The notes under the pieces are model-generated. The model did not search any database. It saw nothing but the letters and a program-made list of their open reading frames with translations, and was not told the DNA's origin. This document shows positions 4,639 through 26,318 of a DNA stretch of 64,000 nucleotides, piece by piece. The stretch comes from Patescibacteria group bacterium (GTDB lineage Bacteria; Patescibacteriota; Minisyncoccia; Phycocordibacterales; SBAW01): assembly GCA_019752125.1 (NCBI GenBank), contig JAIEMM010000012.1, forward strand, positions 3,437 through 67,436, given 5' to 3'. Position 1 is the first letter of the stretch; every line of letters begins with the position of its first letter. Position numbers and translations under genes: made by a program.

Positions 4639-5176
4639 AAAATGCGTCCATGTATTTTCCTTTGCCTTGAGTTCCATAGTCCAAAAGGAATGCATGTTCC
4701 CAGACATCCAGAGCAAGCACGATAGGGAGGGTTACGAAGTGGCCTTGATGTTGTTCGCCTGAGAAACCTGCAAGAAGCTGCTGACCCTCAGCGTCCCAAT
4801 AAAGAATTGCCCAACCTGGTCCGCGCATATTTCCAATTGCTTTGAAGTACGGCTCGAAGTGTTCAACCTTCGTGTATTCCTTTTCAAATTGTTTTGCAAG
4901 TGAGCTACTTGGGGTGAGCGGAGTCGAACCCCCTTCAAACTGTGCGAAATAGAGTTCGTGCAAACGCATACCGCCAAATTCAAACGAGCGGCGGCGAATA
5001 AGTTCTGAAAGCGCGTGAGCGTTTGCCTCGCTGTCTTGTGCGTATTCAGGGATCTTTTTTGAAATTGCGTTGAAGTTTTTAACGTAGCCCTGATACAGAC
5101 CAATATGATCCTCTACAGATTTAGTCGAAATCCCATCAAGGGCGGGGATGTTAAAAGTTTTTGGTGTGTATTCCAT
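4577..5176 (-). CDS. Fe/Mn superoxide dismutase
   Basis: Fe/Mn-SOD motifs (HH..H, DVWEHAF...Y); likely start at MEYTPKTF (5176) rather than ORF start 5221; 3' end overlaps convergent comEC by ~60 nt. Confidence 0.85.
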   Translation of the reverse strand: MEYTPKTFNIPALDGISTKSVEDHIGLYQGYVKNFNAISKKIPEYAQDSEANAHALSELIRRRSFEFGGMRLHELYFAQFEGGSTPLTPSSSLAKQFEKEYTKVEHFEPYFKAIGNMRGPGWAILYWDAEGQQLLAGFSGEQHQGHFVTLPIVLALDVWEHAFLLDYGTQGKGKYMDAFFKNLNWSLVEERFEKLTRTQ

Positions 5177-5296
5177 ATGCCAACATTGTACACCGGACAC
5201 GTTGTATACAGGTTGGCGCACGAAGATATTTGCTATTTTTACAAAATGTTGTATTGTGTACCTCGGTATGTTTTCAGTACATCCTTTAATAAAGGA

Positions 5297-5674
5297 ATGT
5301 TAGCTATGAGTATATGCGAAATTGGGACGGCATCTAGGCGGAAACCTGGCCCTCGCTGTGGTTCTCCGAATGGGCAAGCTGTAAGAGACGCATTGGAGGC
5401 TACGAGGAGGCTCATGCTTGCAGGCAATCTTTTCCCCACCATGAAAGAGATTGCAGATGTGGCGGGCTATACCGAACGGCATATATATTATTGCTGGGGA
5501 ACGCGTGCAGATTTGCACCACGCGGTGCTCGACGGCGATCCTGTTTTTGCCGCAAAGTGTGGCAGAATACTGCTCTCGCAGATCGGTGTCCCAGACATGC
5601 CTCATAGGTCAGACGAACTTGACGCCTGGTTCGACGGCCTTTGCAGAAAGACCTTGTTGGATAAGATTGGATAA
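5297..5674 (+). CDS. small HTH protein, TetR-like N-terminal domain
   Basis: TMKEIADVAGYTERHIYYCWGTRADL resembles TetR HTH; internal ATG chosen because the 5' part of the ORF overlaps the SOD gene; followed by the 'gcgaccc..gggccgcc-T-run' terminator. Confidence 0.4.
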   Translation: MLAMSICEIGTASRRKPGPRCGSPNGQAVRDALEATRRLMLAGNLFPTMKEIADVAGYTERHIYYCWGTRADLHHAVLDGDPVFAAKCGRILLSQIGVPDMPHRSDELDAWFDGLCRKTLLDKIG

Positions 5675-5722
5675 TCAAAAAGCGACCCTCTCGGGCCGCC
5701 TTTTTTCTATGTAAATATTAGT

Positions 5723-5965
5723 TTAGATAAGACCAGCCTTTTTGAGGGTCTTGTATGCGCCGTTCTTGGCGATAGTCTTGAGGCCTTGAGTCGAGACAGT
5801 GACAGTGATGGTCTTGTTGAGCTCAGGGACGAAAATGCGCTTCTTCTGGAGGTTTACCTGCTTACGGACATTGCCAGTAGGGTTGAATTTTGTAGCACGA
5901 ATACGGTTGCTGTAGCCGCCAGCAACTAGAGAGCTTTTATTCGTGATGGGACAAGTCTTTGCCAT
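5723..5965 (-). CDS. rpmB: 50S ribosomal protein L28
   Basis: 80 aa MAKTCPITNKSS...typical L28. Confidence 0.85.
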   Translation of the reverse strand: MAKTCPITNKSSLVAGGYSNRIRATKFNPTGNVRKQVNLQKKRIFVPELNKTITVTVSTQGLKTIAKNGAYKTLKKAGLI

Positions 5966-6002
5966 ATGTGTAGCCTGGACATGCTATCATGTTTTTGTTG
6001 AT

Positions 6003-6638
6003 ATGCAAACGGACCTCATCTTCGGCCTCATAATCCTTATAATCTCGGTTATTTTGCACGAGGTGGCCCATGGCTATATGGCCAACTATCTTGGCGACCC
6101 AACCGCTCGTCTCCAGGGCCGCCTTACCCTTAATCCTCTCTCCCACATAGATCCTATTGGCTCTATTCTTCTACCCGCCCTGCTCGTGTTCAGTAGTTCG
6201 CCATTCTTGATTGGCTATGCAAAGCCGGTTCCATACAATCCTTATAATTTGAAAGGGAAGTGGGCTGAAACGCTGGTGGCTGCAGCTGGCCCTGGCACAA
6301 ACCTTCTCCTCGCCTGTATCTTCGCCATCCTTATACGTGCTGGAAGCGTTGCGATGACCACTCAAACCCTGACCGCCTTTGCGACCATCGTCTACATCAA
6401 CCTTTTATTGGCCTTATTTAACCTCATACCTATCGCTCCGCTAGATGGATCAAAGGTGCTTTCAGGGTTGCTCGGCACCCGCACTGTGGTCGGCCGCGCC
6501 TATGAGTCTTTCCGATCAAGCCTTGAGCGCGTCGGCGTTTTCTCCGGCACGCTTATTATTTTGGTTATTTTGTACCTTCTCTATCCGTACTTCTCCTTTG
6601 TTGTTCAGGCAACCTTTACTCTTTTAGTAGGGCAATAG
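6003..6638 (+). CDS. site-2 protease-like M50 family membrane metalloprotease
   Basis: HEVAHG (HExxH) plus downstream LDG motif in polytopic membrane protein; internal ATG 6003 avoids overlap with rpmB. Confidence 0.7.
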   Translation: MQTDLIFGLIILIISVILHEVAHGYMANYLGDPTARLQGRLTLNPLSHIDPIGSILLPALLVFSSSPFLIGYAKPVPYNPYNLKGKWAETLVAAAGPGTNLLLACIFAILIRAGSVAMTTQTLTAFATIVYINLLLALFNLIPIAPLDGSKVLSGLLGTRTVVGRAYESFRSSLERVGVFSGTLIILVILYLLYPYFSFVVQATFTLLVGQ

Positions 6639-6723
6639 GACAGCAAAAATTGTTCTGCTTGCGCTGGCCATTTATATATAGTAGATTGTTGGCAACGCCT
6701 TGAGGGCGTTTTTAATTCAAGAA

Positions 6724-7137
6724 ATGGCACGTATATCACAGCTTGTCCGCAAAGGACGCACACAATTGAAGAGCAAGTCGAAGTCACCGGCCCTTGGTCG
6801 TGGTTTCAACGTTCTCAAAAATCGTCCTGTGTTCTACTCGTCTCCATTCAAACGCGGAGTCTGCACGAAAGTAACGACTATGACTCCCCGCAAACCAAAC
6901 TCAGCTATCCGTAAGATTGCCCGTGTTCGCTTGACCAACGGTCAGGAAATCACCGCATACATCCCAGGTGAAGGCCACAACCTCCAGGAACACTCAGTGG
7001 TTATGGTTCGTGCAGGCCGTGTGAAAGACATCAACGTTCGTTACCAGATCGTGCGCGGTCGCCTCGATGCAGGTGCGGTTGAGAAGCGTAATGTTTCTCG
7101 CTCACGTTACGGTGTTAAGCGCTCAACTAAGAAATAA
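6724..7137 (+). CDS. rpsL: 30S ribosomal protein S12
   Basis: [12 protein letters not shown]...PNSAIRK...; start set at conserved N-terminus. Confidence 0.95.
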
Positions 7138-7142
7138 TTTAT

Positions 7143-7613
7143 ATGCGTCGACCAGTTAAAAATCGCAATATCGTCGGTCCTGACATGAAGTTCAACTCAA
7201 CGAAGGTTGAGAAGTTCATCAACTCTGTTATGTGGGACGGCAAGAAGAGCACTGCTCGCAAGGTTGTCTACGATGCGTTCGATATCATTCAGGAGAAAAC
7301 TAAAGTAGAAAGCCCTCTCGAAATCTTTGAAGAAGCTATCCGCAACGTAGGTCCTGCAATGGAAATCCGTTCACGCCGTGTTGGTGGTGCAAACTACCAA
7401 GTTCCTCGCGAAGTTCGTCCAGAACGTAAGCAGGCTCTCGCGTACCGCTGGATACTCATTGCCGCTCGCGCTCGCAAGGGTATGCCTATGGCAAACCGCC
7501 TCGCAGAAGAAATCATTGCAGCATCTAAGAATGAAGGCCCTGCAATCAAGAAGCGCGAAGATACTCACAAGATGGCAGAATCAAACAAGGCGTTCGCACA
7601 CTTCGCCTGGTAA
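7143..7613 (+). CDS. rpsG: 30S ribosomal protein S7
   Basis: 156 aa with S7 signature ([13 protein letters not shown]...). Confidence 0.95.
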
Positions 7614-7629
7614 TTTCAAACACAAAAGA

Positions 7630-7660
7630 AAACACCGCCTCAAAAGGGCGGTGTTTTTAC
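7630..7660 (+). terminator. rho-independent terminator after rpsG
   Basis: caccgcc-tcaaaag-ggcggtg stem-loop followed by TTTTT. Confidence 0.7.
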
Positions 7661-7676
7661 ATGCTACATTTTTTGT

Positions 7677-8495
7677 ATGCCCTTAAGGTTGCGTGGGTTT
7701 ACGCTTATAGAGCTCCTTGTGGTTATTGCCATTATTGGTCTGCTTGGGGCCATTGTGATGGCCTCGCTCCAAAGTGCCCGCACAAAGGCGCGGCTGACTT
7801 CTGCAAAGGCGCAAGATGCAGCAATGCGAAATGGAATCGAACAGGTTGTGGGGCAGTGGCCTCTTGATGACTGTTCGGGCACGAACGCGAGCGACACCTC
7901 AGGTTCTGGTAACACGGGTGCATTTACAGGTAGTGGAAATACATGGGATACGGCCAACACTCCATATGGAACGGGATGTTCAGTGCTCTTAAATGGAAGT
8001 GGAGCGATTTCCGTTCCTGATAAAAGTACCTATGCGTTTGGAACAGGTGACTTTACGATGGCTGTTTGGATAAAGACAAATACTCAACAGACCGGAAGTA
8101 CAGGATTTATTGCAAAAAATTTAAGCGGCACAGGTCCTGGATTTGGAATCAGACCTAGTGGCGCAACAAATATTGAAATATGGCTGGCTGATGGCTCAAC
8201 GGCATCAAGCCCTAGCTGCACCAGCTGTAATTATGCTGACGGGAACTGGCATTTTATAGCAGGAACGCGAAGAAATTCTCAACTCAGTCTGTATTATGAC
8301 GGAGCTTTAGTTGTAACAGCAGCCTCAAGTCAAAATGTGACGAATGCACAGCCGCTTTACATAGGTTCGCGCGGAGGGACGACGTTCATTGGCAATGTGG
8401 ACGATGCGCGCCTCTACAGTGTTTCGATAAGCGCATATGAAATACGTGCGATGTACGCGCTTGGCGCTATCTTCCATGCGCTCGCACTTCGTTAG
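7677..8495 (+). CDS. prepilin-type (type IV pilin-like) protein with LamG/ConA-like C-terminal domain
   Basis: Short leader then GFTLIELLVVIAIIGLL prepilin cleavage/methylation motif; C-terminal ...DDARLYSVSIS... jelly-roll-like region. Confidence 0.7.
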   Translation: MPLRLRGFTLIELLVVIAIIGLLGAIVMASLQSARTKARLTSAKAQDAAMRNGIEQVVGQWPLDDCSGTNASDTSGSGNTGAFTGSGNTWDTANTPYGTGCSVLLNGSGAISVPDKSTYAFGTGDFTMAVWIKTNTQQTGSTGFIAKNLSGTGPGFGIRPSGATNIEIWLADGSTASSPSCTSCNYADGNWHFIAGTRRNSQLSLYYDGALVVTAASSQNVTNAQPLYIGSRGGTTFIGNVDDARLYSVSISAYEIRAMYALGAIFHALALR

Positions 8496-8523
8496 GTGTT
8501 GTTGTAGTGTGGTTTCAGAAACT

Positions 8524-8552
8524 TTCCCCCGTTGTGGGGGATTGTAGTTTTT
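8524..8552 (+). terminator. rho-independent terminator after pilin-like gene
   Basis: ccccc-gttgt-ggggg hairpin followed by ttgtagttttt. Confidence 0.6.
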
Positions 8553-8582
8553 AGCGTTCTTCATAAAGAGAAGGGAAAGACA

Positions 8583-9923
8583 ATGACCAAGAAGTTTTTT
8601 GGCACGGATGGTATTCGGGGAGAAGCGAATAAGAAGCTCACTCCGAAGCTGGCGCTTGAAGTTGGGATGGCGGCCGGAATTCATTTCCGGAACAACAATC
8701 CCCATCATCGGCATCGGGTGCTTATCGGCAAGGACACACGGCTTTCCTGCTACATGTTGGAGCAGGCACTTACCGCCGGCTTTTTGTCGGCTGGTATGCA
8801 TGTGTTTTTGACAGGACCTATTCCGACGCCTGGAGTGGCAGCCCTGACACGTTCCATGCGCGCCGACTTGGGCGTCATGATTACCGCGTCTCACAATCCT
8901 TTCGAGGACAATGGCGTCAAACTCTTCGGACCCGACGGCTACAAACTCTCGGATGACGAAGAGCGCAGCATCGAGCAGTTGATGTTGAGGGACCATTCAG
9001 AGCAGCTCGCGTATGGAGACCGTATCGGCCGGGCACAACGCATTAACGGTGTTGCTGACCGCTACATCGAACTCGTCAAAAGTGTCGTGCCTGATATCGA
9101 CTTCGAGGGGTTTCGTGTTGTCATCGACTGCGCGAATGGTGCCGCATATAAGGTTGCTCCACTGGCTCTTGAGGAGTTGGGCGCAGAAGTGTTCGCCATC
9201 GGCGTCGAGCCCAACGGAGTGAACATCAACAGCGGCTGTGGTTCTACAAACCCACTCAAACTTCAAGCCGAAGTCCGTCGTCTGCGTGCCGACATTGGTA
9301 TTGCGCTCGACGGAGACGCCGACCGCGTGCTGCTCGTGGACGAGAAAGGAAACGTAGTGGACGGCGATCAAATCCTTGCGCTTATCGCGACGAATTTGAA
9401 GAACAGGGGTTTGTTGAAAAACGGTGTCGTTGGGACAGTCATGACCAACGGCGGCTTCGAGAGATATTGTGGGGAAACGCTCGAGACTGCCTTTTTTAGG
9501 GCAGATGTAGGCGACCGCTATGTGCTCGAGCGCATGCGTAAGTTCAACGTCACGCTCGGTGGGGAACAGTCTGGGCACATCATCATGTCTGACTATGCGA
9601 CAACAGGTGATGGCTTGATGGCGGCTCTTCAAGTCCTCTCCATCCTCAAGGAAACTGAGCAGCCAATGTCGGCAATCGCGGACTGTTTCGAGCCGATTCC
9701 ACAGGAGCTCCGGAATATCCGAGCTCCCAAGGAGCGGCTGGGACTTCCTACTGTCATCGCCGCGATCGAGGCTGCTAAGCGTGGACTTGGAGAGCTTGGA
9801 CGGCTGATCGTCCGTCCTTCCGGAACAGAGCCTCTAATCCGCGTGATGGTGGAACATCCCGACCGCAAGCTCATTGAGCAGATCTTACAGGACCTGACTC
9901 CTGTCATCGTCACAGCTCAATAA
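8583..9923 (+). CDS. glmM: phosphoglucosamine mutase
   Basis: FGTDGIRG...TASHNP phosphohexomutase signatures; RBS aagggaaag upstream of ATG 8583. Confidence 0.85.
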
Positions 9924-9929
9924 CAAAGC

Positions 9930-9969
9930 AAGCCGTCCCCCTTAATAAAGGGACGGCTTTTTCTTTTTG
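9930..9969 (+). terminator. rho-independent terminator after glmM
   Basis: agccgtccc...gggacggct hairpin followed by tttttcttttt. Confidence 0.7.
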
Positions 9970-10037
9970 CATTTTTGGCTATCTAAGGTATTGTGTAGTC
10001 AACGCGCATTTGCGCTATTTTTAATCCTCAATTATTT

Positions 10038-12191
10038 ATGGCTGACACTAGAGACTACCCATTGGAGAAGGTTCGTAACTTCGGAATCATCGCGCACATC
10101 GATGCAGGCAAGACCACCACGTCTGAACGCATTTTGTATTACACCGGCTCACAGCACAAAATCGGCGAAGTGCACGATGGCGGAACCACCACCGACTGGA
10201 TGGAACAGGAAAAGGAGCGCGGTATCACTATCACTGCCGCTGCCATCACTTGTTTCTGGAGCCGCACCGACGAAGCAGATAAAAAAGATATCTCTAAGAA
10301 GTATCGCTTCAACATCATCGACACTCCTGGCCACATCGACTTTACCGTAGAAGTGAAGCGCTCAATGCGCGTACTCGACGGCGCAGTTTGCGTTTTCGAC
10401 GGCGTTGCCGGCGTAGAACCTCAGTCTGAAACAAACTGGCGCTATGCCGATGAAGCTAACGTGCCTCGCGTATGTTTTATCAACAAGCTCGACCGCATGG
10501 GCGCATCGTTTGAAAAATCGTACCAGTCTATTCTCGACCGCCTCACTAAGAATGCAGTTCGCATGCAGCTCCCAATTGGCGCAGAAGAAGCGCTTGCCGG
10601 CGTTGTCGACCTTCTTTCTATGAAGGCTTACAAGAACGAAGGAGCTATGGGAGACAATGTTGTCGAGATGGAAATCCCTGCAGCAATGATGGACGATGTT
10701 AAGAAATATCGCGCGGAGCTCATCGAAAAGATCGTTGAAAACGATGACCAGATGATGACCGACTACCTCGATGGCAAAGAGCCAACACTTGAAGCACTCA
10801 AGGCAACTCTCCGCAAAGCCGTTATCGCAAATAAAATTTTCCCGGTATATACCGGTTCAGCATTGAAGAACAAAGGCGTACAGCTTGTGCTCGACGCAGT
10901 TGTAGACTACTTGCCATCTCCTTTGGACATGCCGCCAGTTACAGGCACAGACCCTCGCACAGGTGAGCCAACAACTCGCACTGCGTCAGACTCTGAACCA
11001 TTCTGCGCACTCGCATTTAAACTCCAGGCAGACCCATTCGTCGGCCAGCTTACATTCTTCCGCGTGTATTCCGGTTCTATTGAAGCAGGTTCATATATCT
11101 ACAACTCAACAACGGGTTCAAAAGAACGCCTCGGCCGCATTGTGCGCCTCCAGGCAAACCAGCGCGAAGAAGTGAAGAAAGTGTATGCAGGTGAAATTGC
11201 AGCAGCAGTAGGTTTGAAGGACACAAAAACTTCTCACACGCTCTGCGATGAAGCAAATCCAATTGTCCTCGAACAAATTAAATTCCCTGAACCAGTTATC
11301 TCGCTCCGCATTGAACCTAAGACAAAAGCTGACCAGGAAAAAATGGGTATGGCTATGAAGAAGCTCGCAGACGAAGACCCAACCTTCCGCGTCTCGACTG
11401 ATACAGAAACAATGGAAACATTGATCTCAGGCATGGGTGAACTCCACTTGGAAATTTTGGTCGACCGCATGAAGCGCGAGTTCGGCGTTGAAGCAAACGT
11501 TGGTACGCCACAAGTTGCATACCGCGAAACAATTCTCCAGGAAGCAGAAGCAGAAGGTAAGTACGTCAAACAAACGGGAGGTAAGGGTCAGTACGGTCAC
11601 GTCCGTTTGCGCCTCAAACCGCTTGAACCGCTTGATCCTGAAAAGAAAATCGCAAAGAACATCACTCGCGAAGACCACTTCGAATTTATCAACAGCATTA
11701 AGGGAGGTGTTATTCCACAAGAATTCATCGGCCCAGTTGAAAAGGGTATCCGTGAAGCAATGGAGCGCGGTATCGTTGCCGGCTACAAGATGGTTGATAT
11801 CTCTGCAGAACTCTACGACGGTTCGTACCACGATGTGGACTCATCAGAAATTGCCTTCAAAATTGCAGCATCGATGGGCTTCCAGGATGCAGCTAAGGCA
11901 GCAAAGGCAGTATTGCTCGAGCCTATTATGAAAGTCGAAGTCGTTGTCCCAGAAAAATTCATGGGTGACGTTACTGGCTCTCTTTCAAGTAAGCGCGGTT
12001 CTATCGAAGGCATGGAAGAACGCGGTCTCGCACGCGCAGTTAAAGCAAAGGTGCCGCTTGCAGAAATGTTCAGCTACACCAGCGCACTCCGCTCTATGAC
12101 AGAAGGTCGCGGTTCGTTCACGATGGAATTCGACCACTACGAAGTCGTTCCGCCAAACGTTGCCGCTGAAATCATCGCCGCAAGAAAATAA
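10038..12191 (+). CDS. fusA: elongation factor G
   Basis: 717 aa, [10 protein letters not shown]-domain and full EF-G domain order. Confidence 0.95.
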
Positions 12192-12239
12192 TTATCCCCA
12201 CACACTCGCTTGTGCGAGTAGTGAAGGAGACATAGAATC

Positions 12240-13922
12240 ATGAGTAACAGGGCATCCCGGAAACGGGACGCCCTTTCTCGTATTTATTTCCTTAATTTTA
12301 TAAAAAGTTCTATGACCATTCATCGTTTGTCGCGAATATTTGCACTCGGCAATTTTGCCCTCGCTGCTGGAGTGCTGTTGGCTATGGTGATTGTCTTGCA
12401 ATCGCCCGAGACATCGTTCGCGCAGACGACAGGTACGACTGCACAAAAATCTGGTTGTGTAGCGCCTTCGTTCTATTCTTTTAATGTGCCTCCCGCTGTC
12501 CTTAACTCTCCTTGGACCTTGCCGCTGCTTTCAACGTTAGATGGAACATATGCCCCAACAGTAACTGCCACGGGCTTGGCTCCAGGCATTGAACTTCAAG
12601 ATCAAAAATCCACTATTGCTGCAGGTGGCGCCTCTCTACACATTTGGGTGCTCACTGGCACGCCGTCCCAACTAGGGACATATACAATCACCGTTACGGC
12701 TCAAAATAGCTGTGGAGGATCCTCAGCCGTCGTTACGCTCCCAGTGAATAATTCAACAGCGGCGACAGGCAGCGCGTGTCCTTCTGGTACGACAGGCACA
12801 TATCCAAACTGTGCAACAGTCCCTACAAACACAGCGTTCGATAAGACGTCTCTAGTAACTTCTACCTCAAGTCCGACAATAACCGGCACGTCAAACACCG
12901 CCAAAGTTAGTTTGGAAGTAAAGAATACTGTAGGGAATGTATATACGAGTCCGCTTGTGTCAGTGTTGAACGGGCGCTGGGCTATTCCTCTTACAAATAT
13001 TTCCACAGGCACATACTCTCTTTCTCTCTACGGAGAAAACAATTTGTTACTGATTCTCGGGACGTTAATAGCCGCAATTCCTTCTACCTCTGGTTCGGTG
13101 CCACAAATTACGTCGCCGGTGTCATCTACGGCTGCCCCCTCTGTAACCGCTTGCGCGGATTTACCTACCGCAACCATGCAGATAGGAGGGCGGGGGACTG
13201 GTGTAACAAACCTCCAAAACTTCTTGATACAAAAAGGATTGCTTCCTGAAGGTTCGGCAACTGGTTATTTTGGCCCGCTGACACGTGCGGCAGTACAGCA
13301 ATTCCAATCCAGTGCAGGCATTGTCTCGTCGGGTGATGAGAAGACAACCGGCTTTGGTTTAGTTGGCGCACGAACTCGCTCCTTGATTGCATGTCAGGGG
13401 ACTGCTCCTACAAATAGCGCACAGCAACCTACACAACGCATAAGTTGCCCATTAGTTCCACAGCCTGTCTGTGGGGTGGGGGGCACTCTTATTCCTCTTG
13501 GGTTTGATAACAATGGATGTTCGCTTGGAAAGGTGTGCCAGATGCCCGTAGGTCAAACTCAAAACATATCGTGTCCAGTCGTAAAAAACCCTTCATGTCA
13601 GTATGGGACGCTCATATCACTCGGAACTGACTATGATGGATGCTCGCTAGGTTCTTACTGCCAGCCGGCTCAATGTAGCTACATACAACAGATTACGTCT
13701 TGCCCTGCAGGACAAACTCTCGTGTCTGGGACCGACCAGTACGGTTGCCCAAACGTTTCATATTGTTCCGGCGGCTCTTCAGCTACATCCAGCGTCCCTG
13801 TCCCGGGAACCACGTGCCTCCAATCTGCGTACCAAGTGGCCAATTGCCCAGCGGGATATCATTCATCGTCCATAAACGACCTTAACGGTTGCCCTATGGC
13901 ACCTTTGTGCGTTCCAAACTAG
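12240..13922 (+). CDS. secreted/membrane-anchored protein: putative Ig-like domain + peptidoglycan-binding (PG_binding_1-like) domain + four Cys-rich repeats
   Basis: RBS gaaggaga upstream; N-terminal hydrophobic anchor; GVTNLQNFLIQKGLL...GYFGPLTRAAVQQFQ PG-binding motif; four tandem C-P..C..GTLI.LG.D..GCSLG..C modules. Confidence 0.6.
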   Translation: MSNRASRKRDALSRIYFLNFIKSSMTIHRLSRIFALGNFALAAGVLLAMVIVLQSPETSFAQTTGTTAQKSGCVAPSFYSFNVPPAVLNSPWTLPLLSTLDGTYAPTVTATGLAPGIELQDQKSTIAAGGASLHIWVLTGTPSQLGTYTITVTAQNSCGGSSAVVTLPVNNSTAATGSACPSGTTGTYPNCATVPTNTAFDKTSLVTSTSSPTITGTSNTAKVSLEVKNTVGNVYTSPLVSVLNGRWAIPLTNISTGTYSLSLYGENNLLLILGTLIAAIPSTSGSVPQITSPVSSTAAPSVTACADLPTATMQIGGRGTGVTNLQNFLIQKGLLPEGSATGYFGPLTRAAVQQFQSSAGIVSSGDEKTTGFGLVGARTRSLIACQGTAPTNSAQQPTQRISCPLVPQPVCGVGGTLIPLGFDNNGCSLGKVCQMPVGQTQNISCPVVKNPSCQYGTLISLGTDYDGCSLGSYCQPAQCSYIQQITSCPAGQTLVSGTDQYGCPNVSYCSGGSSATSSVPVPGTTCLQSAYQVANCPAGYHSSSINDLNGCPMAPLCVPN

Positions 13923-13931
13923 CCCCGCCAG

Positions 13932-13959
13932 TTGCGTTTTTGTAGTGCTTTGCTACTAT
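13932..13959 (+). promoter_or_regulatory. candidate sigma70-type promoter for tuf (TTGCGT-N16-TACTAT)
   Basis: Hexamer match by eye ~75 nt upstream of tuf ATG. Confidence 0.45.
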
Positions 13960-14032
13960 GGCTCTAACACGTACAAAAGCCGTGTTTGGCTGTGCTTAAT
14001 TATTGTGTAATTAGTATTTAACCCATTTTTGT

Positions 14033-15226
14033 ATGGCAACATTTGACAGACAAAAGCCGCACATGAACGTCGGCACCATTGGTCACGTCGACCACGGAAA
14101 AACAACGCTCACTGCGTCTATCCTCCACACCCTCGACATGCTCAAGGCAGAGGGCTACAGCTCTCGCGTTGAAGGAGTTGACGGTATCGACAACGCTCCT
14201 GAAGAAAAGGCGCGCGGTATTACTATCGCTCTCCACCACTCGGAATATGAGTCGCCAAAGCGCCACTATGCGCACATCGACGCTCCGGGCCACGCAGACT
14301 ACATTAAGAACATGATCACCGGTGCCGCTCAAATGGACGGCGCAGTGCTCGTAGTTGCTGCAACTGACGGCGTTATGCCCCAGACTCGTGAACACATCCT
14401 TCTTGCAAAGCAGGTTGGTGTGCCTAAGATCATCTGCTTCCTCAACAAAGTAGACATGGTTGATGACAAGGATCTCGTAGACCTCGTCGAAGAAGAAGTC
14501 AAAGAAGCTCTTGCAAAACAAGGCTACGCTGACGCTCCAGTTATCAAGGGTTCAGGTCTCAAGGCTCTTGAAAGCACTGACGTAAGCAGCGAATGGTCTC
14601 AGAAGGTTAAAGACCTTATCGACACCATGGACAGCTACTTCCCAGACCCAGTCCGCGAAACTGACAAGCCATTCCTTATGCCTATCGAAGACATCTTCTC
14701 TATTGAAGGTCGCGGTACGGTAGTTACAGGCCGCATTGAACGCGGTTCAGTCAAAGTAGGTGAAGAAATCGAAATCATCGGTCTCGTTCCAACTACTAAG
14801 ACCACTGTCACTGGTATCGAAATGTTCAACAAACAGCTCGAATCTGGTATGGCAGGCGACAACGCAGGTATCTTGCTCCGCGGTACAAAGAAGGAAGACA
14901 TCCACCGTGGTCAGGTTCTTGCAAAGTCAGGCTCAGTAACTCCTCACACAGACTTTGAAGCAGAAATTTACGTCCTTACAAAGGATGAAGGTGGTCGTCA
15001 CACACCATTCTTCACCGGCTACAAGCCTCAGTTCTACGTTCGTACTACGGACGTAACTGGCGAAGTAACCCTTCCTGCAGGCGTAGAAATGGTTATGCCA
15101 GGCGACACGGTTACCTTTAAGGTAAAACTTACAGCACCAGTTGCGCTTGAAGAGAAGACTCGTTTCGCAGTCCGCGAAGGCGGTAAGACCGTCGGCGCAG
15201 GTGTCGTTACAAAGATCGTTGCGTAA
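14033..15226 (+). CDS. tuf: elongation factor Tu
   Basis: [17 protein letters not shown] and full EF-Tu length. Confidence 0.95.
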
Positions 15227-15262
15227 TCACTTATTGGAGTAAGCTAATCAAGGTATAGGTTA

Positions 15263-15290
15263 CCCCTCTCCGCCAGCTGGCGGAGAGGGG
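15263..15290. promoter_or_regulatory. perfect 28-nt palindrome downstream of tuf (CCCCTCTCCGCC-AGCT-GGCGGAGAGGGG)
   Basis: Perfect 12-bp arms around AGCT; no T-run, so attenuator/processing or protein-binding site rather than a classical terminator. Confidence 0.5.
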
Positions 15291-15309
15291 AGAACTAGAC
15301 CAAACAACT

Positions 15310-15681
15310 ATGGCTACCGAAGAAATAAAAAAAGCACCAGCCAAGCGTGCAAAGAAGACTGCAGCTCCGGCCGCAGTCCAGAAGCTCCGCATTAAAGTGC
15401 GCGCATACGAGCACAAAGTGCTTGATGCGTCAGTTCGCCAGATTATGGACACCGCACTTCGCTACGATGCGAAGATCGCAGGCCCAATACCTCTGCCAAC
15501 TGAGATCAAAAAGTACACCGTCAACCGCTCAACCTTCGTCTACAAAGACGCACGCGAACAGTTCGAGATGCGTATCCACAAGCGCGTGATCGACATCCTT
15601 GAACCAAACGCAAAGGTTATCGAAGCTCTCACCAATCTCTCACTCCCATCTGGCGTGACGATCGAGGTGAAGATGGTCTAA
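15310..15681 (+). CDS. rpsJ: 30S ribosomal protein S10 with Lys/Ala-rich N-terminal extension
   Basis: LRIKVRAYEHKVLDASVRQIM...core S10; ~20 extra N-terminal residues. Confidence 0.9.
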   Translation: MATEEIKKAPAKRAKKTAAPAAVQKLRIKVRAYEHKVLDASVRQIMDTALRYDAKIAGPIPLPTEIKKYTVNRSTFVYKDAREQFEMRIHKRVIDILEPNAKVIEALTNLSLPSGVTIEVKMV

Positions 15682-15699
15682 TCAACAATCAAGTCGAAA

Positions 15700-15742
15700 A
15701 GAAAAAAAGAACTCCTCCACTCCGGGGGAGTTCTTTTTATTT
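15700..15742 (+). terminator. rho-independent terminator after rpsJ
   Basis: gaactcc...ggagttc hairpin followed by tttttattt. Confidence 0.75.
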
Positions 15743-15909
15743 ATCCACTTGAAGTAATAATTTTTTCTTATATACTTAGAAAAAGTTGCTCATTGGTTAG
15801 TTTGTTCGCGATCGCACTTGTTTTGAAACGATTTCTGCCTGATATCATGAATCGGGTTTTTTGTTTGGAGCGTTTTGTAGGAGACTACGCCCCGAGCAAA
15901 GAAATTCTA

Positions 15910-15946
15910 CGAAAAACCTCTCTACGGCCGTAGAGAGGTTTTTCGT
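15910..15946. promoter_or_regulatory. perfect palindrome cgaaaaacctctctacgg/ccgtagagaggtttttcg in rpsJ-rplC spacer
   Basis: 18-bp perfect arms with A/T runs on both sides (bidirectional terminator-like). Confidence 0.5.
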
Positions 15947-15954
15947 ACCTGTAT

Positions 15955-15983
15955 TTGCATAAAATAGCGACCCCGTGTATAGT
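15955..15983 (+). promoter_or_regulatory. candidate promoter for rplC operon (TTGCAT-N17-TATAGT)
   Basis: Near-consensus hexamers with 17-nt spacer ~70 nt upstream of rplC. Confidence 0.55.
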
Positions 15984-16053
15984 CTTGTGGACTCTTACAT
16001 AAGGAGTTGATCCATGTCCCGGGCACCGGCGCCCAGAGGGACCACTAGACAAC

Positions 16054-16677
16054 ATGAAGTTTATACTCGGAACAAAGCAACACATGGTTACCGTCTTTGA
16101 TGAAGGCGGTATTGCGCATGCGGCAACTATCATCGTTGCTCAGCCTGCGGTTATAACCCAGCTCAAAACTAAGGAAAAAGAAGGCTATAACGCCGTTCAG
16201 ATTGGTTCAGGCGAGGTTAAAGAAGGCCGTGCTAACAAGGCACAGGTTGGCCACGCTAAGGGCAAGTCACTCAAGAACTTTAAAGAAATTCGCCAGCGCG
16301 ACGGCAAGCTCCCAGAGGGTGTCGAAGTTGGTGGAACTATCGACGTGACTGTATTTACAGCAGGCGAGAAGGTGCAGGTATCTGCAATCTCAAAGGCAAA
16401 GGGTTTCCAGGGTGTTATCAAACGCCATGGCTTCCACGGTGGCCCTCGTTCTCACGGTCAGAAGCACTCTGAACGCGCACCAGGTTCTATCGGCGGTTCA
16501 GGCGGTCGCGCAGGCGGTCGTGTGGCCAAGGGTATGCGCATGGCAGGCCGCATGGGTGGCGACCGTGTTACAGTTCGAAATCTCGCAATCTTGCAGGTAC
16601 ACCCTGAAACAAACGAAATCGTCATCGCAGGTGCCGTCCCAGGCCGCCGCGGTACGCTCGTAGAAATTCGCGGCTAA
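16054..16677 (+). CDS. rplC: 50S ribosomal protein L3
   Basis: 207 aa, L3 signature. Confidence 0.95.
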   Translation: MKFILGTKQHMVTVFDEGGIAHAATIIVAQPAVITQLKTKEKEGYNAVQIGSGEVKEGRANKAQVGHAKGKSLKNFKEIRQRDGKLPEGVEVGGTIDVTVFTAGEKVQVSAISKAKGFQGVIKRHGFHGGPRSHGQKHSERAPGSIGGSGGRAGGRVAKGMRMAGRMGGDRVTVRNLAILQVHPETNEIVIAGAVPGRRGTLVEIRG

Positions 16678-16686
16678 TACAATTTT

Positions 16687-17355
16687 ATGGAAGCACCACT
16701 TTACAACATCAAAGGCGAAAAGAAGGGAACAGTCACGATCCCTGAAAACATTTTCGGTTTGCCATTTAATGCAGACCTTCTTCACAGTGTCGTAACTGCG
16801 ATGCAGGCAAATGCCCGCACACCGGTTGCGCACGTAAAGACTCGCGGTGAAGTTCGTGGCGGCGGTAAGAAGCCATGGCAGCAGAAGGGAACTGGCCGCG
16901 CACGTCACGGTTCATCTCGTTCTCCAATTTGGCGCGGCGGCGGTGTTACTCACGGCCCACGCAATGAAAAGAGCTACGCTCAGAAGATCAACCGCCAAGC
17001 TCGCCAGAAGGCATTGCTTGTAGCACTCTCACGCAAGTGGAAAGATGGTGAAATTATCTTTGTCGATAATCTTGAAATGGCAGCACCTAGAACTGCTGAA
17101 GCAAAGAACATCATTGCAAACCTCGGCAAGGCAGGGCTTGTTATGAAGAAGAAGTACAACGGTGCACTCATTGCACTTCCTGAACGCCACACCGCAACAG
17201 TAAAAAGCTTTGCAAACATTGGTAACGTCAACGTCGAAGAAGTTCGCACGCTCAACCCAGTCAACGTACTTTCGAGCAAATACCTCATCATCGCAAACCC
17301 TGAAGCCGCATTTGTAACCCTCGGCAGCAAGCGTGTCGTAAAGAAAGACAAATAG
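16687..17355 (+). CDS. rplD: 50S ribosomal protein L4
   Basis: 222 aa, L4 signature. Confidence 0.95.
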   Translation: MEAPLYNIKGEKKGTVTIPENIFGLPFNADLLHSVVTAMQANARTPVAHVKTRGEVRGGGKKPWQQKGTGRARHGSSRSPIWRGGGVTHGPRNEKSYAQKINRQARQKALLVALSRKWKDGEIIFVDNLEMAAPRTAEAKNIIANLGKAGLVMKKKYNGALIALPERHTATVKSFANIGNVNVEEVRTLNPVNVLSSKYLIIANPEAAFVTLGSKRVVKKDK

Positions 17356-18509: not shown

Positions 18510-18530
18510 AACCAAACTCAATAAAAAAAT

Positions 18531-18566
18531 AAAAACTCTCGCCTCACGGCGGGAGTTTTGTTTCTT
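18531..18566 (+). terminator. rho-independent terminator after rplB
   Basis: ctcgcc-tcac-ggcggg stem then ttttgttt. Confidence 0.65.
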
Positions 18567-18589
18567 GCTCTTTGGAGAAAATATCCTAT

Positions 18590-18820
18590 AGTAACGCCTA
18601 GATAGTTCGGGGCCACACTCTACGCTAATGCTGGGATGCCTAGAATTGAAGGTATATGGAGGCCCCACCGTCCTTCGTGTTCCTTGTCCTTCGGCCAGCC
18701 GGGACCAGGGTGCCCGTAATCGCTATGCAGACAGACTCTTGGAACGGTATGTGTGTTGGAAATAGCGAACCCAGATTTTTCAGTTTTGCCTGCCTAGTCC
18801 TTTAGGCAGGTTTTTCTTTT
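18590..18820 (+). ncRNA. candidate small RNA / structured transcript ending in a + strand terminator (18789-18820)
   Basis: ~200 nt non-coding stretch after the rplB terminator, ending in cctgcct...aggcagg + T-run; no family recognised by eye. Confidence 0.25.
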
Positions 18821-18821
18821 G

Positions 18822-18851
18822 TAAAAAAGAAATCCCCGCTGCAGGGCGGGG
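18822..18851 (-). terminator. minus-strand terminator (ccccgc..gcgggg + T-run) after gene 18854-19198
   Basis: Hairpin immediately 3' of the minus-strand stop; near-identical copy at 19259-19287. Confidence 0.6.
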
Positions 18852-18853
18852 GT

Positions 18854-19198
18854 TTAATAGTCGTAGGAGGCGAGCTTGTCGAGGAATTTCATCAGATCGG
18901 AAACATATTCCTTGCCTAATGGAATGCTCGCAGATTCCGTCTCCTCTTTCATGGGATCTTCGTAGCACAGCTTCAGCGACTGGCCGTCGATGTAGACCTT
19001 CAGGTAAATCAGTGTGCTTGGTTTCCCCGGACTATCTTCATCCAGGAATCCAACCTGCACAGCTTCGACCTCGAGGTCGGGGTACAGAGGATGGGAGATC
19101 ATAGAGCACCAAATTCCCAAACCCTTTTTATAGCTAAGCCGTTGTTGCGTTTTTCGGTGGATATCTCCGAAAACGGCTTCAGCAACTTCATACGCCAT
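18854..19198 (-). CDS. hypothetical protein (114 aa), antisense insertion in r-protein cluster
   Basis: ATG with RBS gggaga; own terminator; no recognisable domain. Confidence 0.45.
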   Translation of the reverse strand: MAYEVAEAVFGDIHRKTQQRLSYKKGLGIWCSMISHPLYPDLEVEAVQVGFLDEDSPGKPSTLIYLKVYIDGQSLKLCYEDPMKEETESASIPLGKEYVSDLMKFLDKLASYDY

Positions 19199-19258
19199 AG
19201 AGCAATCTCCCGCGTTATGATTGCCATCTATTCTAGATATAAAAAGTTGTCACTGCAA

Positions 19259-19287
19259 GTAAAAGAAATCCCCGCTGCAGGGCGGGG
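19259..19287 (-). terminator. minus-strand terminator after gene 19297-19500
   Basis: Same aaaagaaatccccgctgcagggcgggg module as 18822-18851. Confidence 0.6.
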
Positions 19288-19296
19288 AAGGGTGTT

Positions 19297-19500
19297 TCAG
19301 GACAGCTCTTGAAGCTGTCTCTTCATGTGGCCACGCAGGTCAGCCTCGAGAGCCTGGGAAGTTGCGGTAACCCAGCACTCGACAAACTCGGCCTCTGTCT
19401 GTTCGCTGAACGGCTTGTACAGGCCGGCGCCCTTGTCGAGACCTTCAAGGTCTTGTGATACGGTCGCCTTTGAAATTGCAACTTCAGGTGCGTCAGTCAT
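19297..19500 (-). CDS. hypothetical small acidic protein (67 aa)
   Basis: Internal ATG 19500 has RBS aggaggg 8 nt upstream; own terminator; no recognisable domain. Confidence 0.4.
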   Translation of the reverse strand: MTDAPEVAISKATVSQDLEGLDKGAGLYKPFSEQTEAEFVECWVTATSQALEADLRGHMKRQLQELS

Positions 19501-19660
19501 CGGTCCTGCCCTCCTTCTAGGCTCTAGTATAGCGCACAGCACACCTGCCGGTAGACAGGTTTGACTCATAAGAGCCTACCTGCTAGTATCTCTGTACTTC
19601 CGTGCCGCAAGGTCTAGCCGCTCTTTGGCTACGACGGGCAGGGAATTTAATTTTGGAAAG

Positions 19661-23115: not shown

Positions 23116-23135
23116 TTTTTAAGAAATATGAAATT

Positions 23136-23163
23136 GGCCCCATGCGGGGCCTTTTTCTTTTTA
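23136..23163 (+). terminator. rho-independent terminator after rplE
   Basis: ggcccc-atgc-ggggcc then tttttcttttt. Confidence 0.75.
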
Positions 23164-23246
23164 TAAATCTACCTTGCTTTATGTTCCACAATTAGGCATA
23201 TTTCCTTTAGAGTTTTCGAGTACACCGTCCACACGAGGAGGATTCC

Positions 23247-23870
23247 ATGGACGTACATCATGAGCCTAAGCGGGCAGCGTTGAGTTCATATGGAGGAGGT
23301 GGAATAAGCCTCAACGGCCTGAACCGCGCGGAAGAGGATATCCTTGAAGGCGCATTCAGGACTGGCCACCACTGGGTCCGTATGGGGCAGAATGGCCGCA
23401 TCGAGCACACACCATCTTTCAATGCCTTGCCGAGTCCGGCTGACGATGACCGTATGCTCCCGTTTTGGAGGGAGGGTGAGAAAAAACCTCCTGTCCAACT
23501 GGAACTGTTCAGCCACGCTGAAACTGGTGACCAGCGCCTACACTCGAGTCGCTCATTCACCATCCAGCACCTGTGCGGCTACGGCTACACGCCGGAGAAG
23601 TACAAGGCGCAAGCTGCCCTCCTTGAGAGTTGGGGGTTCGAGTGTCTACGTTCCCGCCGGGGCAAGACTGGAGAGTTCTGGGAAATCTGGTTCTTGCCTG
23701 GTGTTTGGGCCGCCAAGGGCAGTCTAAAAACGGCAGTGCATCGACTCCCACAGAAAGAGCGGAACGAAGAGACTCAAGCAAAGCTTGCACTTGAATTTAT
23801 CCGTCGTAACGCAAGCTTCGGCACCTTGGACGTATCGGTTCAGCGTCTTGCCCAAGTGCTGGACGACTAA
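23247..23870 (+). CDS. hypothetical protein (207 aa), cassette gene 1
   Basis: ATG ORF; followed by cassette terminator; no recognisable domain. Confidence 0.5.
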   Translation: MDVHHEPKRAALSSYGGGGISLNGLNRAEEDILEGAFRTGHHWVRMGQNGRIEHTPSFNALPSPADDDRMLPFWREGEKKPPVQLELFSHAETGDQRLHSSRSFTIQHLCGYGYTPEKYKAQAALLESWGFECLRSRRGKTGEFWEIWFLPGVWAAKGSLKTAVHRLPQKERNEETQAKLALEFIRRNASFGTLDVSVQRLAQVLDD

Positions 23871-23893
23871 CATTCACGTGGCGACCCCGCAAG

Positions 23894-23946
23894 GGCCGCC
23901 CTTTTTCTTTTGACAAAGAAGTAGTGGGTAGGTAGGGTGGTTTCAG
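23894..23946 (+). repeat. 53-nt repeat copy A: terminator 3' half + promoter (TTGACA-N17-TAGGGT-ggtttcag)
   Basis: Identical to 24344-24396; TTGACA at 23910-23915, TAGGGT at 23933-23938. Confidence 0.7.
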
Positions 23947-23969
23947 ACTGCAACGTAAGGAGGTTCAAC

Positions 23970-24314
23970 ATGTCCGACTGGCTCGATCAGCTCCCATTAT
24001 TGCCCAAAAGTAAGGGGCGGTTGGAACATAAGGAGAGTTGGCCTGAAAAGCTGGCGCTTCAGGTGTTCGATCGGAAAGTACCTACCGACCAAAGGACCCA
24101 CGGTAACGCACTTTTCCAGATCCGCTCCGTGCTCGACCCTGTCACCGTGCAGGAAGACATCACCCACGTAAGGTCGTCAGCCCCTTTGCCTTTCTCGGAG
24201 CGCGATCAGCAGGTGTTCCTTGCGGTAATCCAATGGCTCGGCACTAATATTGGCCGAGGCTTCATGAGCGACTTTCAAAAGCAGCTGGACTCTGAATTTG
24301 AGCGTCGGCGTTAA
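23970..24314 (+). CDS. hypothetical protein (114 aa), cassette gene 2
   Basis: RBS aaggagg before ATG 23970; the upstream GTG (23937) lies inside the promoter repeat. Confidence 0.5.
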   Translation: MSDWLDQLPLLPKSKGRLEHKESWPEKLALQVFDRKVPTDQRTHGNALFQIRSVLDPVTVQEDITHVRSSAPLPFSERDQQVFLAVIQWLGTNIGRGFMSDFQKQLDSEFERRR

Positions 24315-24343
24315 TGTAAGAGCGACCCATCCAGGCCGCCCTT

Positions 24344-24396
24344 TTTCTTTTGACAAAGAAGTAGTGGGTAGGTAGGGTGGTTTCAGTTGATCAACG
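24344..24396 (+). repeat. 53-nt repeat copy B: terminator 3' half + promoter
   Basis: Identical to copy A; TTGACA 24360-24365. Confidence 0.7.
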
Positions 24397-24409
24397 AAAG
24401 GGGCTAGTT

Positions 24410-25045: not shown

Positions 25046-25056
25046 AACGATACAGG

Positions 25057-25110
25057 CGACCCATCCGGGCCGCCTTTTTCTTTTGCAATAAATTTTTTGG
25101 GTGGTATGGT
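25057..25110 (+). promoter_or_regulatory. cassette terminator (gcgacccatccgggccgcc + T-run) and degenerate promoter (TTGCAA-N16-TATGGT)
   Basis: Related to copies A/B but diverged after the T-run. Confidence 0.5.
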
Positions 25111-25167
25111 TGGCGCGGTTTGCCTCTCGCCAGAAAGGAGGGGTTAGTTCTACGTCAGGAGACCGTT

Positions 25168-26028: not shown

Positions 26029-26042
26029 CGACCGTCGATGCG

Positions 26043-26072
26043 GGCGGCCCCAAAAAGGCCGCCTTTTTCTTT
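26043..26072 (+). terminator. cassette terminator D (ggcggcc...ggccgcc + T-run)
   Basis: 7-bp GC stem followed by tttttctttt. Confidence 0.7.
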
Positions 26073-26126
26073 TGCAAATCGAAATTTTAGAAATATTTCA
26101 GTACTCATTTTGCTATTCTCGTCAGA

Positions 26127-26193
26127 GCTGGCAGCACGGTGCGGCACAGGATTGCTAATCCAGGCGTCGAAGGTTCGAGTCCTTCTGCCAGCG
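26127..26193 (+). ncRNA. tRNA-like element / probable pseudo-tRNA (67 nt; good acceptor and T arms, collapsed D-arm; nominal anticodon GCU)
   Basis: GCTGGCA/TGCCAGC acceptor pairing, GAAGG-TTCGAGT-CCTTC T-arm, TTGCTAA loop; only 13 nt where the D-arm should be; no CCA. Confidence 0.35.
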
Positions 26194-26295: not shown

Positions 26296-26318
26296 ATATG
26301 GCGGAGTATAGAATTTGT

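Follow-up and report, generated by a model that had tools for sequence, protein, structure and literature searches.

In the canonical bacterial str operon, as in E. coli, the genes stand in the order rpsL-rpsG-fusA-tufA. The 64,000-nt stretch of DNA analysed here (the window), from contig JAIEMM010000012.1 of a Patescibacteria group bacterium, holds the same four genes in the same order and orientation, with the S10 cluster after them. Unlike the canonical operon, it has three unrelated genes interposed: a type IV pilin-like gene and glmM between rpsG and fusA, and a gene for a peptidoglycan (PG)-binding protein between fusA and tuf. It also differs in having terminator-like hairpins after rpsG, after glmM and before the PG-binding gene, and in the promoter-like blocks that fusA and tuf each carry. 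Variable surface loci between core genes are known elsewhere, as in the pneumococcal cps locus (dexB-aliA) and the O-antigen clusters (galF-gnd). By analogy only, the window resembles these in its variable surface-related content, its conserved flanks and the differences among closely related genomes. Unlike them, its genes form no biosynthetic pathway, the PG-binding gene looks vertically inherited, and no evidence of allelic replacement was obtained. Multigene insertions between concatenated translation operons are described for Gammaproteobacteria (Brandis et al. 2019, PMC6735719). As in that account, the ancient order of a translation-gene cluster is kept and, in some lineages, unrelated genes are inserted between units. 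The gammaproteobacterial insertions separate whole operons, such as str from S10, and are sporadic, whereas those in the lineage of the window fall at internal str junctions and are near-universal.

The ORF (open reading frame) listing and family scans give the order, on one strand, rpsL-rpsG, the pilin-like gene (N_methyl plus LamG), glmM, fusA, the PG_binding_1 gene and tuf-rpsJ. rpsG and fusA are spaced 2.4 kb apart with two genes inside, and fusA and tuf 1.8 kb apart with one. An initial interpretation made from the letters alone (the sequence-only reading) had described a str gene order split by non-translation, envelope-related genes, and the ORF listing and Pfam/NCBIfam scans agree. Its rpsL-rpsG terminator is upheld as well: the hairpin 3′ of rpsG (7629-7657, plus strand), detected by a terminator scan and followed by TTTTT, folds at -20 kcal/mol with a z of -6.0 (stability is given throughout as fold energy and z against 200 shuffles). 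Further hairpins with T-runs lie inside the cluster at 9930-9959 and 12249-12274. Compared with a single-unit str operon, the order on one strand is retained, the genes are not contiguous, and at the sequence level there are internal terminator-like hairpins and promoter-like blocks before fusA and tuf. The most economical reading is that the cluster comprises three or more units, namely rpsL-rpsG, then fusA, and a third in which the PG-binding gene runs on into tuf-rpsJ. Because fusA and tuf each have a conserved promoter-like block, the inserts probably separate transcription units and do not belong to one operon. Taken as a whole, we consider it likely that the ancestral rpsL-rpsG-fusA-tuf order has been kept, that it is no longer one operon, and that its junctions have been filled by accessory genes. 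In this scheme, rpsL-rpsG would end at its terminator, fusA and tuf would each start from a sigma-70-like block with a hairpin-containing leader that lacks a Shine-Dalgarno (SD) sequence, and the junctions between units would act as landing sites for accessory genes, mostly for envelope or secreted proteins.

The spacer between fusA and the PG-binding gene bears directly on this scheme. The gene had been read as a 560-aa ORF from a start at 12240 supported by a ribosome-binding site, 48 nt after the fusA stop and with no terminator in between, which made co-transcription with fusA seem probable. These points do not hold. The start is ATG 12312: the conserved N-terminus M..HR.aR.FeL of all 17 aligned homologues coincides with it, the NCBI record (P0001) likewise gives 536 aa, and at the upstream ATG the relatives L082, L085, L087 and L088 have other bases or in-frame stops after it (relatives are loci labelled L001 onward, from independent assemblies in ENA, NCBI, JGI and Logan). 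The spacer is thus 120 nt. Within the 72 nt formerly read as coding sits the stem-loop 12249-12274 (GGGCATCCCG-GAAA-CGGGACGCCC; -19.3 kcal/mol, z -3.8, with 0 of 200 shuffles as stable), which has a T-rich tail and is as stable as the terminators accepted earlier. The U-tract 3′ of the stem, TTTCTCGTATTTATTT, is interrupted; L085 has a better one, TTTCTCTTTTTTATTTTTTT. The stem-loop is kept in L081/L090, L082, L085/L086, L087 and L088, with compensatory changes (A-U in place of G-C in L085, another inner stem in L088). Since the argument for co-transcription rested on a non-conserved start and the supposed absence of a terminator, it loses its support, and a conserved hairpin with a T-rich tail stands between the two genes.

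The stem-loop belongs to a larger 5′ block shared by the window and the same loci. It runs from ATCCCCAC through TTGTGC (12210-12215), N17 and TAGAAT (12233-12238) to the hairpin and a T/A-rich tract that reaches the ATG. The consensus across loci is ATCCCCAC, TTGTxx, N16-17, TAnAnT, 7-8 nt, the hairpin, a T/A-rich tract and ATG. In L087 the block follows an extra 335-aa gene and lies directly 5′ of the PG-binding orthologue, not beside fusA. Because it moves with the gene there, the block belongs to the PG-binding gene and not to fusA, and it is probably the promoter of that gene. The PG-binding gene would then be transcribed mainly from this block, on an mRNA whose 5′ end lies just before the stable hairpin and whose A/U-rich leader extends to AUG 12312. 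Since no terminator follows the gene, the transcript would run onward into the tuf unit. The 5′ end of the block, TATCCCCAC, occurs 12 times in the window with at most one mismatch, where 8.1 occurrences are expected; it shows no enrichment and was rejected as a genome-wide regulatory motif. Rfam returned only a chance ctRNA match for 5000-17000 at E<=1, and nothing in the region in the whole-window scan at gathering threshold, so the conserved hairpins are not known RNA families.

The block upstream of fusA consists of TTGCAT (9967-9972), N16, TATTGT (9989-9994), a CAACGC hairpin (10004-10015) and a T/A-rich leader without SD. GTATTGT (-10-like) and CAACGC are invariant in nine orthologous loci whatever the upstream gene, L087 included, where the upstream neighbour lies on the opposite strand, and the arms of the short hairpin co-vary in the nine-locus alignment. 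Besides this block, two or three putative terminators cut fusA off from rpsG. For tuf, the sequence-only reading had proposed a candidate promoter, and this is borne out: TTGCGT (13932-13937), N16 and TACTAT (13954-13959) occupy invariant columns of six orthologous loci, in which TTGC, TA(C/G)TAT and AACAC..GCCGTGTTTGGC do not vary. No terminator was found between the PG-binding gene and tuf in the window or any orthologue; in the window only a fold of -5.8 kcal/mol (z -1.15) comes after the stop. Upstream of rpsL lie TTGCGC-N17-TAGATT and a small hairpin with a T-run (6694-6710). The rpsL leader (6658-6723) and the fusA leader have a common design and partly common sequence: a -10-like hexamer, about 6 nt, CAACGC(C/G), a short hairpin, TTTTTAAT(T/C)C and a start codon without SD. 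This design may represent a common regulatory leader for translation genes in the lineage. Coordinates are collected in the table.

Features of the str cluster and its flanks, in positions of the window
Feature	Position	Strand	Evidence
M50 peptidase	5943-6638	+	Pfam
rpsL, ribosomal protein S12	6724-7137	+	PF00164 at 2e-30; ATG 6724 read directly
rpsG, ribosomal protein S7	7143-7613	+	PF00177 at 7e-60; 96-99% identical in L081, L082, L166 and L169
Type IV pilin-like protein, LamG/concanavalin-like C-terminal domain, 272 aa	7677-8495	+	PF07963, PF13385, TIGR02532
Weak hairpin (CCCCC/GGGGG) with distal T-run, pilin gene to glmM	8525-8541	+	-14 kcal/mol, z -2.8
glmM, phosphoglucosamine mutase, 446 aa	8583-9923	+	TIGR01455 equivalog
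Putative intrinsic terminator after glmM, stem plus TTTTTCTTTTT	9930-9959	+	-17.9 kcal/mol, z -4.1, T-run
fusA promoter-like block and leader	9967-10037	+	Alignment of 9 upstream regions; fold
fusA (elongation factor G, EF-G)	10038-12191	+	TIGR00484 at 1049 bits; Pfam domains
Conserved 5′ block of the PG-binding gene	12193-12311	+	Common to the window and L081/L090, L082, L085/L086, L087, L088
PG_binding_1 protein, predicted secreted or membrane-anchored, 536 aa	12312-13922	+	PF01471
tuf promoter-like block and conserved leader of about 73 nt	13932-14032	+	Six-locus alignment
tuf (elongation factor Tu)	14033-15226	+	TIGR00485 at 653 bits; Pfam
rpsJ	15310-15681	+	PF00338
rplC	from 16054	+	tblastn matches to relatives

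Among species-representative genomes, EF-G finds its best matches in metagenome-assembled genomes (MAGs) of Minisyncoccia, Adlerbacteria and Kaiserbacteria, at 78-85% identity. Closer relatives, reached via the inserted genes, have EF-G identities of 89-97.5%, and one of them (P0011) is Candidatus Adlerbacteria (lineage Patescibacteria group, Parcubacteria group). By these matches, the source is a member of the Patescibacteria (Candidate Phyla Radiation, CPR) from a Parcubacteria / 'Adlerbacteria'-like lineage. The proteins of the window are already in nr as 'Patescibacteria group bacterium' with the family names used here (P0001, P0069, P0189). One relative, L088, has fusA in four ORF fragments (5727-7879) and an intact PG-binding orthologue downstream; the split reflects either assembly-error frameshifts or a pseudogene.

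The protein encoded between fusA and tuf combines an N-terminal hydrophobic helix, two immunoglobulin (Ig)-like domains, PG_binding_1 and four Cys-rich repeats. As previously noted from the sequence, it is a Cys-rich PG-binding protein: PF01471 scores 40.7 bits against a gathering cutoff of 23 (residues 318-365 of the 560-aa frame), the columns G292...V328 of the domain are invariant across 18 sequences, and 17 of the 22 Cys fall within the last 176 residues. The N-terminal hydrophobic stretch (ALGNFALAAGVLLAMVIVL, then SFA/Q) is conserved and forms a helix at 3-30 in an AlphaFold2 (AF2) model, in which the Ig-like beta-sandwiches reach a pLDDT of 75-87 and the Cys-rich C terminus is poorly modelled. 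The first Ig-like domain weakly resembles PKD/He_PIG and the second Big_13, with an invariant CPxGTxGTYPNC motif between them. Foldseek matches of the AF2 model were all generic proteins with tandem Ig domains, namely Ig-domain adhesion molecules and an S-layer protein. The C-terminal repeat, CP-x5-6-C-x14-16-GC-x5-C in four copies, is matched by no Pfam model. Because no catalytic (hydrolase or amidase) family was found in Pfam or NCBIfam, the protein would be a binding or scaffold protein and not a recognisable hydrolase. We infer from sequence and model that it is exported and serves as a wall-tethered adhesin or scaffold. The fusA-tuf junction would accordingly hold a surface protein with a membrane anchor, two Ig-like domains, a wall-holding PG_binding_1 domain and disulfide-rich C-terminal repeats. 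PG_binding_1 proteins and proteins combining N_methyl with Laminin_G_3 are known in Patescibacteria; the architectures in the window match dozens of CPR homologues and show no family-level difference, the Cys-rich repeat being the only part without a Pfam model.

PG-binding orthologues of 41-74% identity occur between fusA and tuf in seven of seven independent assemblies with EF-G identities of 89-96% (L081/L090, L082, L083/L084/L091, L085/L086, L087, L088 and a JGI contig), all Adlerbacteria-like, and the order fusA-PG-binding gene-tuf is conserved across this clade. Identities of the PG-binding protein and EF-G fall together (74/96, 71/95, 52/91, 48/90 and 41/89%), and because of this the gene looks vertically inherited and fast-evolving. 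With dN/dS ratios (nonsynonymous to synonymous substitution rates) of 0.122 for the PG-binding gene and 0.146 for glmM between the window and L081, the inserts are under purifying selection and thus functional genes. The next relatives lack the PG-binding gene: L001 (EF-G 85%) has a fusA-tuf gap of 117 nt, and L038 (83%) carries other Cys-rich secreted proteins. The gap is expanded to two, or six or more, secreted PKD/Big/PG-binding proteins in L087, the JGI contig and L169. L169 (6557-12168) and the JGI contig (P0010) hold an island of at least 4-6 large secreted proteins, up to 1293 aa each, with PG_binding_1, PKD, Big_7 or beta-helix domains. A metagenome scan with a profile of the PG-binding family found only two further full-length orthologues (L090, L091). 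In the other 74 loci the match is confined to the PG_binding_1 domain, and just two (L112, L115) adjoin fusA; there is no general linkage of PG_binding_1 proteins to fusA.

At the rpsG-fusA junction, the pilin-like protein scores 28.9 bits for PF07963 N_methyl (cutoff 21.2) and 29.6 for TIGR02532 (cutoff 16.3), carries PF13385 Laminin_G_3 and belongs to a CPR-wide N_methyl plus LamG family. Its class III signal is complete, MPLRLRG/FTLIELLVVIAIIGLLGAIV (the leader reads MPLRLRG/FTLIE, the slash separating positions -1 and +1). The leader is short and basic with G at -1, F at +1 and E at +5, and a hydrophobic helix comes next. The prepilin-type gene proposed from the sequence is thus confirmed; the hairpin after it, proposed as its own terminator, is present but weaker than that of rpsG, with 2 of 200 shuffles folding equally well. 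Orthologues lie at the same junction in L166 (67% identity; order rpsG-pilin-glmM-fusA) and L167 (63%; pilin-small ORF-fusA), and L005 has a homologue of 39% identity between rpsG and fusA. Among genomes with EF-G identity of at least 89%, this gap takes at least five states: pilin and glmM (window, L166); glmM alone (L081/L090); membrane ORFs and glmM (L169); pilin and a 57-aa ORF (L167); a Cys-containing ORF of 58-62 aa (L082, L083, L085/86); this small Cys ORF with an opposite-strand nucleotidyltransferase (L087); and nothing (L088). Judged by gene content, the rpsG-fusA junction turns over much faster than the fusA-tuf junction. The 57-62-aa ORF of the relatives has a DC.H....C.LC motif that may be zinc-ribbon-like. 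It is located at L082:2091-2279, L086:2521-2697 and L167:973-1146, occurs also in L083, L085 and L087, and is missing from the window and the other glmM-bearing loci.

The assignment of glmM, also made from sequence earlier, is borne out by TIGR01455 (571 bits against a curated cutoff of 447.55) and by Pfam, which finds all four PGM_PMM domains I-IV (PF02878, PF02879, PF02880, PF00408). The best PDB matches are GlmM structures. T-A-S-H-N-P is the defining catalytic phosphoserine motif of GlmM, and TASHNP is seen in the translation. The terminator that separates glmM from fusA is absent from the earlier reading; an equivalent also lies upstream of fusA in relatives. glmM is found at the rpsG-fusA junction only in a subclade (window, L081/L090, L166, L169), whose members lack the small ORF that other relatives have there. 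Eight clade-specific GlmM sequences of 63-74% identity form one clade in a neighbour-joining tree, a tree not rooted with other CPR GlmMs. A search of 5.8 billion proteins gives, after these eight, more than 100 next-best matches with full-length identities of 60-64%, of which the named ones are all Hyphomicrobiales (Pseudolabrys, Undibacter, Xanthobacteraceae, Bosea, Chelatococcus). Solved Firmicutes GlmMs score 395 bits, versus about 575 for the alphaproteobacterial matches. The GC content at third codon positions (GC3) of glmM, 0.62, is a local maximum, other genes having 0.42-0.60. Taken together, the one clade, the Hyphomicrobiales matches, the bit scores, GC3 and the confinement to a subclade make a single horizontal acquisition from an alphaproteobacterial donor quite probable. 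The rpsG-fusA junction would then hold a LamG-type pilin-like gene and a glmM of probably alphaproteobacterial origin, each followed by a hairpin of its own.

To place the locus in its radiation, we compared 80 fusA-centred loci, the 80 best EF-G matches, together with targeted look-ups. More than 300 nt separate fusA from tuf in 43 of 52 CPR loci (median 862 nt) and in 17 of 19 close relatives with EF-G identity of at least 66% (median 2.4 kb), compared with none of six non-CPR loci (median 81 nt). For rpsG-fusA the same holds in 21 of 59 CPR loci, 15 of 21 close relatives at that identity and none of nine non-CPR loci; junction spacers in the non-CPR controls measure 43-81 nt. The rpsJ-rplC junction is likewise often open. 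Gap genes are heterogeneous. PG_binding_1 and N_methyl pilin-like proteins recur most, and HepT/MNT and Phd toxin-antitoxin modules, a reverse transcriptase, a PD-(D/E)XK nuclease, a holin, an S8 peptidase and a P-type ATPase also occur. By this sample, a broken str cluster characterises the radiation, and what has been inserted is generic accessory cargo. The arrangement had been called atypical, which is right for bacteria in general but not within Patescibacteria, where interruptions are the norm. The very synteny comparison that the sequence-only reading had named as a check therefore counts against its novelty and leaves the annotation standing. Our search found no published account of str-operon disruption in Patescibacteria or Parcubacteria; the variant is previously undescribed but unsurprising and lineage-typical, and its genes are already annotated in public records. 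In 15 more distant Patescibacteria loci (L026, L028, L029, L031, L034, L041-L043, L049, L059, L060, L063, L064, L071, L072) a conserved but unannotated small ORF of about 75-200 aa occupies the fusA-tuf gap; it is not in the window. It lies directly after fusA or just before tuf and has a Phd/YefM-like N-terminus ('GDR.VVF.....FVVM.L.EYE.L'), a 'DKIN..I..W' motif and an acidic tail.

Several observations weigh against separate units. L083/L091 have no 5′ block before the PG-binding gene and instead a canonical terminator after fusA, and the -35 elements are weak, TTGTGC agreeing with the consensus at 3 of 6 positions. All promoter and terminator assignments derive from motifs and their conservation, overall confidence in the structure model is low (pLDDT 63, pTM 0.26), and the synteny sample is not an unbiased survey of the phylum, with non-CPR controls of only nine loci. 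Because its U-tract is interrupted, hairpin 12249-12274 may be a partial terminator of fusA transcripts, with some read-through and co-transcription. Taken further, this becomes a functional str operon in which the PG-binding gene is read through from fusA, surface output is tied to the translation apparatus, and the hairpin is a leaky attenuator that steps expression down. In every orthologous locus the PG-binding gene indeed shares a strand with fusA and begins 120 nt after it, termination at the imperfect U-tract may be incomplete, an extra PG_binding/PKD gene in L087 lies 42 nt after fusA with no hairpin between and looks co-transcribed, and the missing terminator before tuf makes some transcriptional continuity in the region likely. 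We nevertheless consider this unlikely. The start at 12240 is not the conserved one, the hairpin between the genes matches accepted terminators in stability, the promoter-like block before it moves with the PG-binding gene in L087, and there is no intact str operon to join because fusA lies behind two or three terminators with a block of its own. Codon usage points the same way. With the ribosomal-protein and elongation-factor genes of the window as reference, the codon adaptation index (CAI) is 0.44 for the PG-binding gene, 0.39 for the pilin gene and 0.42 for glmM, like ordinary genes (recJ, comEC and M50, 0.38-0.44) and below secY and SOD (about 0.6), translation genes (0.65-0.76) and fusA and tuf themselves (0.74-0.76). 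Indirectly, this argues against long-term expression of the inserts at the level of ribosomal genes, and the suggested coupling to translation-apparatus expression is not supported.

A different account, possible though somewhat doubtful, would make the near-identical rpsG, fusA and tuf genes homology arms between which surface-gene cassettes are swapped horizontally through DNA uptake. The gap content differs among loci with EF-G identities of 95-97.5% (window, L081, L082, L166, L167, L169), comEC lies upstream in the window and relatives, and mobile-type genes (toxin-antitoxin, reverse transcriptase, PD-(D/E)XK nuclease) sit in other CPR gaps. The alphaproteobacterial affinity and GC3 of glmM would also fit, as would the synonymous divergence (dS) of the window from L081, which is 1.33-1.46 in glmM and the PG-binding gene against 0.17-0.85 in flanking genes, but the low dS of the flanking translation genes is explicable by codon-usage selection. 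PG-binding identity ranks as EF-G identity does, as vertical descent predicts, and the single GlmM clade points to one acquisition. Within 6600-15400 the inserts have neither direct nor inverted repeats beside them, nor an integrase or transposase, which speaks against cassettes and led us to reject insertion by a mobile element. It is rather doubtful, too, that the str junctions, especially fusA-tuf, are lineage-wide surface-gene hotspots with the flanks as homology arms, holding from one to at least six secreted Ig-like, PKD or PG-binding proteins plus pilins, turning over faster than the genome and having captured glmM from a Hyphomicrobiales-like donor, possibly the host on which this episymbiont lives. 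A chimeric contig joining CPR ribosomal genes to foreign envelope genes by misassembly or misbinning might be suspected, since the contig is metagenome-assembled and GlmM has its nearest relatives outside the clade in Alphaproteobacteria. This is effectively refuted: the same junctions occur in independent assemblies (L081-L083, L085-L088, L090, L091, L166, L167, L169), GC content across the region is even at 0.49-0.52, and conserved intergenic blocks tie the inserts to fusA and tuf.

A str cluster kept in order but probably split into units has consequences for annotation: a gene next to fusA or tuf in a CPR genome cannot for that reason be assigned to an operon, and the correct start of the surface protein is 12312. 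The most conserved gene cluster of bacteria appears dismantled into separate units in CPR, and genes for the envelope and for adhesion (pilins, wall-binding Ig-like proteins) accumulate in its gaps, the class expected to mediate host-cell attachment. The fusA-tuf gap is easily located in any MAG and could serve for sampling the diversity of surface proteins. The alphaproteobacterial-like glmM, if its origin is confirmed, would be a concrete CPR gain of a peptidoglycan-precursor gene from outside the radiation. Were the hotspot account true, the locus would both mark diversity in host interaction and record gene flow from host to symbiont. Current understanding is not overturned, since CPR bacteria are already known for fluid genomes that encode many pili and surface proteins and are open to horizontal gene transfer (for example PMC10031880).

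Further features of the window lie downstream of the str genes. A near-perfect palindromic hairpin with arms of about 25 nt and no T-run lies between tuf and rpsJ (15252-15301). Between rpsJ and rplC, an 18-bp near-perfect hairpin (15908-15947), terminator-like on both strands and conserved in L081/L090, follows a smaller terminator (15719-15731). The S10/spc cluster has gaps of 1.1 kb between rplB and rpsS (18510-19624) and 3.4 kb between rplE and rpsN (23116-26493). They contain only ORFs without Pfam matches, their sequence is not conserved in the relatives compared, and no Rfam family reaches threshold there except a borderline tRNA-like match (26127-26193, 29.6 bits) not called by ARAGORN. 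LOOT RNA (42766-42886) and tmRNA (46120-46494), both on the minus strand, each reach Rfam gathering level at 86.8 bits. A tRNA-Ile with anticodon TAT lies at 49061-49133 (minus strand) and a tRNA-Ser at 54504-54593. A single adk gene is usual after secY; here two tandem ORFs of about 190-200 aa (30307-30882 and 30889-31488) follow it, with the P-loop N-termini GPTGSGKGT and GPQGSGKGT.

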